Shown: positions 4,362-4,794 of the stretch, piece after piece
How the letters are laid out: the number at the start of each line of letters is the position of its first letter
Position numbering within the stretch: the stretch's first letter is position 1
IMG/VR virus record: IMGVR_UViG_2698536307_000011
Length of the DNA stretch: 6,252 bases
Strand: one strand, 5' to 3'
From: a virus
Taxonomy: Duplodnaviria > Heunggongvirae > Uroviricota > Caudoviricetes
Translations under genes and position numbers: made by a program
Notes under the pieces: model-generated
What the model saw: only the letters and a program-made list of their open reading frames with translations
Databases searched by the model: none
What the model was told of the DNA's origin: nothing

Positions 4362-4794
4362 ATGTTTGGTATTTTTGGTAAAAAAAGCCCGCAGAGCGGC
4401 AACGGAAATTAAAAAGTTTGAAAAACGCGATCTGGCACAGGTGGTGATTAACGCCGCATACCTGGTGGCCTGTGCAGATGGTGAATGTGAGGCTTCCTAG
4501 AAAGCGAAGATCGAACAGGTACTGCGTAATCAGCCTGCGCTGTACGCGTTTACGTCAGAAATTAATGCGATTAGCGCAACCATTATCGGTCAGCTGGATA
4601 CGAACTTTAAAACTGGTCGTCGTGCGGCGTTACGTGAGATCGAGGATGTGAAACACGATACGCGTGAAGCGGAAGATGTGCTGGATGTGGCGGTGGCCAT
4701 TGCGGAGGCAGACGGCGAAATTGAGCCGGAAGAGCGCAAGGTGCTGGAAGAGATTGCCGGTGTTCTGGGTCTTCGTCTGGAGAATTACCTGTGA
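4362..4794 (+). pseudogene. TerB-family (tellurite-resistance TerB-like) gene disrupted by a frameshift in an A7 tract (4380-4386) and an in-frame amber codon (TAG 4498-4500)
   Basis: ATG 4362 with SD AAGGA (4348-4352) opens MFGIFGKK, which hits a stop at 4410 in frame 0. The +1 frame continues ARRAATEIKKFEKRDLAQVVINAAYLVACADGECEAS-TAG-KAKIEQVL...DVLDVAVAIAEADGEIEPEERKVLEEIAGVLGLRLENYL to TGA 4792-4794. Both ADGE..E repeats align with E. coli TerB (ASDGVSSEEKQK and AKSDGNFDDDEKSAVREIA) as recalled. Confidence 0.65.

Follow-up and report, generated by a model that had tools for sequence, protein, structure and literature searches.

The feature at positions 4362 to 4794 of the window, the whole 6,252-nucleotide stretch of viral DNA analysed here, is best explained, with a probability of roughly 0.9, as a plain, doubly disabled pseudogene of a small TerB/TciA phage accessory gene. 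An extra A after codon 8, which converts a run of six to a run of seven (A6 to A7), would cause ribosomes starting from the well-placed ATG 4362 to terminate after 16 codons. A change of GAG to TAG at codon 46 would halt any ribosome that did reach the TerB frame before two thirds of the protein was made. The TAG probably arose once, after which homologous recombination or short-patch conversion would have carried it between the several paralogous prophages that EHEC-type genomes contain; it presumably persists because the gene can be dispensed with. The window copy is not expected to yield a functional full-length protein. The biological weight of the finding is small: a dispensable accessory gene was lost, and the dead allele was copied round the lambdoid prophages of EHEC-type E. 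coli.

Identity and setting of the gene

The gene and the neighbors that define its setting are as follows.

3046..3741, plus strand: phage antiterminator Q gene (Pfam Phage_antiter_Q, E=9.8e-93; RefSeq annotation of identical loci)
3943..4192, plus strand: three-tRNA cluster of the ileZ-argN-argO type, with anticodons CAT, TCG (Arg) and TCT (Arg) (ARAGORN, Rfam, RefSeq)
4362..4794, plus strand: TerB/TciA-like pseudogene, spanning ancestral ATG through TGA; would encode 143 aa with the two lesions mended
4791..4958, plus strand: gene for a DUF3927/TciB-like small membrane protein (Pfam DUF3927, E=1.7e-16; PHROG 1470 'TciB-like'; RefSeq WP_000216649.1)

The translation with its two lesions repaired scores 45.7 bits against the Pfam model for TerB (PF05099), for which the cut-off is 24.4. 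The same repaired translation matches PHROG 632, 'tellurite resistance', over residues 1-143 of 143 (E=2.1e-68), and matches the solved structure of TerB (PDB 2jxu) across residues 15-137 (E=4e-7). Orthologues that have the ATG, A6 and GAG encode an undamaged protein of 143 aa, and a homologue with at least 80% query coverage is found in 129 phage records. In other genera, protein identity is 87-90% at DNA identity of about 75-78%, and the intact gene is therefore strongly constrained. Its role is a predicted one, assigned by homology only. Assignment to anti-phage defence was considered and rejected, the PADLOC match being sub-threshold (E=0.006), as were matches to two NCBIfam families, DjlA and YmfL.

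By its Q gene, the locus belongs to the late-regulatory part of a lambdoid prophage in E. coli. The order of genes is hok/sok, DUF968, RusA, Q, the tRNAs, the tciA-like gene, the DUF3927/tciB-like gene, an STnc100-type sRNA, a sialate esterase and the lysis genes. The GTG start of the DUF3927 gene overlaps the stop codon of the TerB gene (GTGA) and has its own GGAG at 4779-4782; this gene is undamaged in the window copy.

Several other observations concern the neighborhood. The first tRNA (3943-4018) is called Met (CAT) by ARAGORN and Ile (lysidine-type, ileZ-like) by RefSeq. In locus L006, the middle tRNA (224-304) is 81 nt long, is annotated 'tRNA-OTHER' and was missed by ARAGORN; this copy may be degenerate. 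An Rfam match to STnc100 (100.8 bits, E=8.5e-22) occupies 4963-5135, between DUF3927 and the sialate esterase gene, with a terminator-like hairpin beyond it at 5160-5178. STnc100 has been linked, in a 2026 preprint, to the PasD prophage sRNAs that occupy this position. On the minus strand at about 5153-5296, overlapping the start of the esterase gene, RefSeq marks a short pseudogene in identical loci ('hypothetical protein', frameshifted, with an internal stop, incomplete). The hok/sok type I toxin-antitoxin system lies at 482-806, with a sok RNA match of 114 bits and a HokD reading frame at 594-806, and a weak isrK-like match follows at 815-896. Bases 1-125 of the window are 97-99% identical to many unrelated E. 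coli plasmids and chromosomes, and not to the prophages that match the remainder; this segment of about 125 bases resembles the terminal part of a mobile element that adjoins the prophage segment. Compared with an O157:H7 prophage (L001), the window is near-identical from about 3250 to its end, except for ten differences at 3751-4000, and shows hundreds of differences before 3250, so that it is a mosaic. In the phage collection, Stx phages match the first 80 bases after the tRNAs only, within PPompW-type prophage sequence.

The amber codon

4498..4500, plus strand: amber codon, where the first ADG-x5-E motif otherwise has an invariant Glu46 (GAG)

The window reads GCC TGT GCA GAT GGT GAA TGT GAG GCT TCC TAG AAA GCG AAG ATC around the stop, and its translation is ACADGECEAS, stop, KAKIEQVL. 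Both flanks of the TAG share one reading frame, in which the window translates as AAYLVACADGECEAS, stop, KAKIEQVL. Numbered from the ancestral ATG (4362), the codon is the 46th; with the TTG start chosen by PGAP, it is the 45th. The 97 codons after it (4501-4791) are open and free of Met, and are ended by TGA at 4792-4794. Translation and a check of the open frame thus reproduce what the earlier note had read from the letters, namely an in-frame TAG inside the TerB core with 97 open codons beyond it and no ATG among them.

That note had also placed a glutamate of E. coli TerB at this position and proposed a single change of GAG to TAG. Both proposals hold. Aligned to 2jxu, the amber codon takes the position of the second E in DGVSSEEKQKM. 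The comparison of orthologous loci that had been suggested finds GAG at the amber position, both in intact E. coli copies (L005, L006, L007 and many IMG/VR loci) and in orthologues from Pantoea, Pseudescherichia, Franconibacter and 'Enterobacter' pulveris. Glu46, within ADG-x5-E, is unchanged in 15 diverse homologues in an alignment that reaches the Alphaproteobacteria and cyanobacteria, with identity down to 27-33%. Since the glutamate is invariant and intact relatives have GAG, the alignments identify GAG to TAG at a conserved glutamate as the origin of the stop. Orthologues have both acidic motifs complete. The window copy has the first motif incomplete, its Glu being TAG, and the second undamaged (ADGEIEPEE).

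The A-run at the start

Features at the start of the gene are as follows.

4350..4353, plus strand: Shine-Dalgarno sequence AGGA, 8 nt before ATG 4362 and 12 nt before TTG 4366, read from the sequence
4362..4412, plus strand: dead-end frame from the ATG, MFGIFGKKSPQSGNGN, then TAA at 4410-4412; 16 codons
4380..4386, plus strand: A7 homopolymer, with an insertion of one base into the ancestral A6 that frameshifts ATG 4362

Orthologues begin at the equivalent of ATG 4362, and read either MFGIFGKKARRAA by way of A6 or MFGIFKKKTRRAA by way of AAAAAGAAAA. A6 occurs in locus L004, in 34 IMG/VR loci and in every other genus compared. The A7 run, which the earlier note overlooked, is a second inactivating lesion as judged from the reading frames. 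The exact A7 57-mer is found in 556 of 615 matching E. coli records, and therefore represents a real allele rather than a homopolymer sequencing error. Phase variation at the A-run was considered and set aside; only A6 and A7 occur in the fetched loci and, with A7 in that share of the matching records, the run is not hypervariable. A consequence of the frameshift at the start is that amber suppression alone would not restore the protein.

PGAP regains the TerB frame by starting at TTG 4366, 4 nt inside the frame of the ATG. By the same route, the allele that combines A7 with GAG (L007, 567-995; L219, 9167-9595) is intact in RefSeq as WP_001303558.1. That protein may also be a pseudogene product, and the RefSeq call deserves re-examination, because the ancestral ATG is frameshifted there too.

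Distribution and authenticity

The 761 bases around the amber codon are 100% identical in dozens of independently finished E. coli genomes. The exact TAG 57-mer occurs in 529 records, as compared to 57 for the matching GAG allele, and the TAG 20-mer in 89 IMG/VR contigs as compared to 20. An allele-specific query of 55 bases, centred on the T such that no megablast seed forms if the centre base differs, found 1006 TAG copies; of the 5426 complete E. coli genomes, 577 have at least one and none has more than five. The earlier note had allowed for an assembly error, and a sequencing or assembly error at 4498 stands next to no chance given an identical base in hundreds of independently finished genomes as well as in the IMG/VR contigs.

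In RefSeq the locus already has pseudogene status, under the name 'tellurite resistance TerB family protein' and with the remark 'internal stop'. The call is present in O157:H7, O55:H7, O26:H11 and O145:H28 strains and in the bovine strain C3, which among the matches listed is the best for the whole window (99.8% over 121-6252). A literature search on this specific pseudogene turned up, besides the P1 annotation, only listings of TciA/TerB among the genes that lie near prophage sRNAs. The pseudogene is thus already known and annotated, and about a tenth of sequenced E. coli genomes share its stop.

Probable recombination among prophages

All four combinations of A6 or A7 with GAG or TAG occur. 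About 27 nucleotide haplotypes carry the TAG, and their remaining polymorphisms (V/A28, C/Y37, Y/S61, T/I84, Y/H142 and L/Q143) are common to GAG alleles. These two observations argue for recombination. A local core, 4488T-4494T-4497C-4515A, is present in all TAG alleles, and is partly imposed by the 20-mer search. The pattern suggests that the TAG originated once and was then exchanged by recombination between the several lambdoid prophages that these genomes contain.

One prophage lies at about 2.0 Mb in two O157 strains; its copy in F6294 has GAG, and its copy in 493/89 has TAG. In the vicinity of the gene, 4494 and 4498, 4 nt apart, are the only differences between these copies (L219 and L220), and 4494A is otherwise seen on GAG alleles only. 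The pair has the appearance of a short conversion patch derived from a paralogous prophage copy. This pair of positions, together with the A6/A7 and GAG/TAG combinations, offers handy markers of short-patch recombination between paralogous prophages.

The earlier note had suggested recent inactivation. The gene is inactivated, and the event is recent in the sense that the window copy shows little decay. As a statement about the age of the allele the word does not stand, given the spread of the TAG over prophages of O157, O55, O26 and O145 and over many haplotype backgrounds.

The abundance of the TAG might instead mean that the nonsense allele, and A7 with it, became common because loss of TciA was favoured in EHEC-type hosts, in place of neutral decay and hitch-hiking; TciA could, for example, interfere with the chromosomal ter island, or impose a cost when present in several prophage copies. 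Such adaptive loss would suit the large number of copies per collection and per genome, the excess over the matching GAG allele, and the many backgrounds on which the TAG is found. However, the collection consists mostly of clonal O157:H7 and other STEC genomes, so that the counts are not independent, and recombination among paralogous prophages spreads neutral alleles equally well. Intact copies also coexist with TAG copies in the same lineages. Selection for the loss is accordingly considered unlikely, and neutral loss of a dispensable gene remains the preferred reading.

Further decay and selection

In the window copy itself, the 97 codons after the stop and the DUF3927 gene are undamaged, and there is no decay besides the two lesions. 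Other TAG copies have decayed further. About 52 IMG/VR TAG loci match only from window position 4413 on, having lost the start codon and the first 17 or so codons; upstream they have unrelated sequence after a different Q gene, with an in-frame TAA. Of the 20 loci retrieved by the corresponding GAG 20-mer, none has this 5' truncation. Another TAG locus, L160, has a 1-nt deletion near its 3' end. Of 56 distinct TAG contexts, 15 have a disrupted DUF3927, with either a nonsense mutation at position 44 or a frameshift around codon 33, versus none of 62 GAG contexts (p=4e-6); the 15 go back to about three independent events. The earlier note had named the same TAG in orthologues, with further decay downstream, as the mark of a plain pseudogene rather than of readthrough or recent loss, and truncation, deletion and DUF3927 lesions are what the TAG loci show.

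As an observation on the junction itself, locus L112 (3812-4950) and about 50 other IMG/VR loci have a different, 273-aa Q-like gene, without tRNAs, joined to codon 18 or thereabouts of the TerB gene. Every fetched locus of this junction class has the TAG; all came from the TAG-specific search, so that the observation is ascertainment-limited.

Variants private to GAG haplotypes comprise 11 non-synonymous and 61 synonymous changes, whereas those private to TAG haplotypes comprise five and four (Fisher p=0.013), among them D to N in an ADG motif. Scaled to 287 non-synonymous and 91 synonymous sites, the rough ratios are 0.06 for GAG-private and 0.40 for TAG-private variants. The TAG-private variants number only nine, sampling was asymmetric (TAG alleles by exact 20-mer, GAG alleles mostly by protein search), and the contrast loses significance (p=0.23) once only GAG variants of the same rarity are counted. 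The comparison is suggestive only of relaxed constraint on TAG alleles.

The open frame downstream of the TAG was considered as a sign of function and rejected. Only 30 of the 873 possible point substitutions in the 97 codons (3.4%) create a stop, and TAG-private substitutions downstream number just six. The openness of the 97 codons is therefore uninformative.

Possible readthrough and partial products

The earlier note had raised a requirement for amber readthrough as the alternative to inactivation, while observing that none of the three tRNAs upstream has a CUA anticodon. The observation on the tRNAs is borne out, as ARAGORN finds no CUA tRNA in the window and reads CAT, TCG and TCT for the three. 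The requirement is not: a fold of the sequence after the stop gives z=-0.65, with no stimulatory RNA structure found; the A7 frameshift would go uncured; and TAG alleles have gathered more lesions. Rfam has no family at the amber site, the nearest matches being the upstream tRNAs and STnc100. The stop is not conserved across orthologues, since GAG stands in its place in other genera and in many E. coli copies, and the private-variant comparison gives no sign of a downstream constraint peculiar to TAG alleles. Programmed readthrough is not supported.

A weaker form would have the gene tuned down and not dead, with leaky or conditional expression through +1 slippage, ribosomal or transcriptional, on A7 combined with readthrough of UAG-A by a near-cognate or suppressor tRNA. 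As read from the sequence, A7 is a slippery Lys run on which a +1 shift would restore the frame. An A after UAG is a context that favours suppression, and the downstream frame is open in nearly all TAG alleles. Yet two low-efficiency events would have to combine, and neither a CUA tRNA in the window, a structure after the stop nor an Rfam recoding element is there to assist them. Near-cognate decoding of UAG inserts Gln, Tyr or Lys, any of which would displace the invariant Glu. The start region is missing from many TAG copies, chance alone would be expected to leave the frame open, and the N/S ratio is higher in TAG alleles. Expression by this route is very improbable.

A further feature bears on the possibility of partial products.

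4648..4794, plus strand: 48-codon remnant ORF with in-frame GTG start, from the ORF list; SD-like GAGG 2 nt upstream

This remnant ORF matches phrog_3920 ('unknown function') over residues 1-48 of 48, and gene finders call it often enough to have given it a PHROG of its own. The gene might on that account be thought split, its products being an N-terminal piece ending at the TAG, a 48-aa C-terminal protein with the second ADG-x5-E motif, or both. The spacing of GAGG to GTG 4648 is poor, however, and the N-terminal piece is out of frame with the ATG in the window copy. TerB, moreover, is a single compact domain built from both halves, as the 2jxu alignment across residues 15-137 indicates. Two separate products are extremely improbable. 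The remnant ORF is probably a gene-caller artefact and not a product, and phrog_3920, most simply an annotation artefact of the pseudogene, appears to be a family built from gene-caller C-terminal fragments of it. Three points are absent from existing annotation: the frameshift at the start, the dependence of WP_001303558.1 on a doubtful TTG, and the identity of phrog_3920 as the remnant ORF.

A broader proposal is that amber and A7 together form a selected low-expression state, in which rare +1 slippage and rare UAG readthrough supply a trace of a TciA variant from the several prophage copies in a cell, or that selection favoured the loss of TciA, which then swept by recombination across the pool of EHEC prophages. 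It is decidedly unlikely. The preferred reading remains a plain pseudogene with two lesions.

Comparison with known systems

The closest counterparts are two RefSeq pseudogenes, ECpv15279_RS14160 of O157:H7 strain PV15-279 and RG26_RS22945 of strain C3. Both are 100% identical to the window over 4200-4960, with the same TAG, the same A7 and the same neighbors. The RefSeq pseudogene entry records the internal stop only, with the feature drawn from TTG 4366, and leaves the frameshift of the ancestral ATG unmentioned.

WP_001303558.1, the allele with A7 and GAG, differs from the window over the same interval only at 4494 and 4498. It has the same A7, with GAG rather than TAG, and is intact only if translation begins at the poorly placed TTG 4366. 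Three alleles are intact from the ancestral start: WP_001672427.1, WP_001299895.1 and tciA of Escherichia phage JLK-2012, whose annotation names the pair tciA/tciB. They occupy the same place after the tRNAs, have the same DUF3927/tciB partner and show 93-97% protein identity, but differ from the window in having the ATG in frame, through A6 or AAAAAGAAAA, and GAG at codon 46.

TerB of the terZABCDE tellurite-resistance operon (2jxu) has the same domain, with two ADG-x(5-6)-E acidic motifs, and the amber codon of the window falls on a Glu of the first. The relationship is distant (E=4e-7), and the window gene stands alone with its DUF3927 partner, outside any ter operon.

TciA of phage P1 resembles the window gene in showing full-length homology at 40-51% identity, in being a phage accessory gene that adjoins phage tRNA genes, and in being non-essential. 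P1 differs in being another type of phage and in having a three-gene cassette, and the function of its TciA is assigned by homology only. The intact alleles, the P1 TciA family and TerB have all been described previously. In P1, a CRISPRi screen found tciA, tciB and tciC to be non-essential (PMC10695390), and homologues of this kind fit a gene that can be lost without cost.
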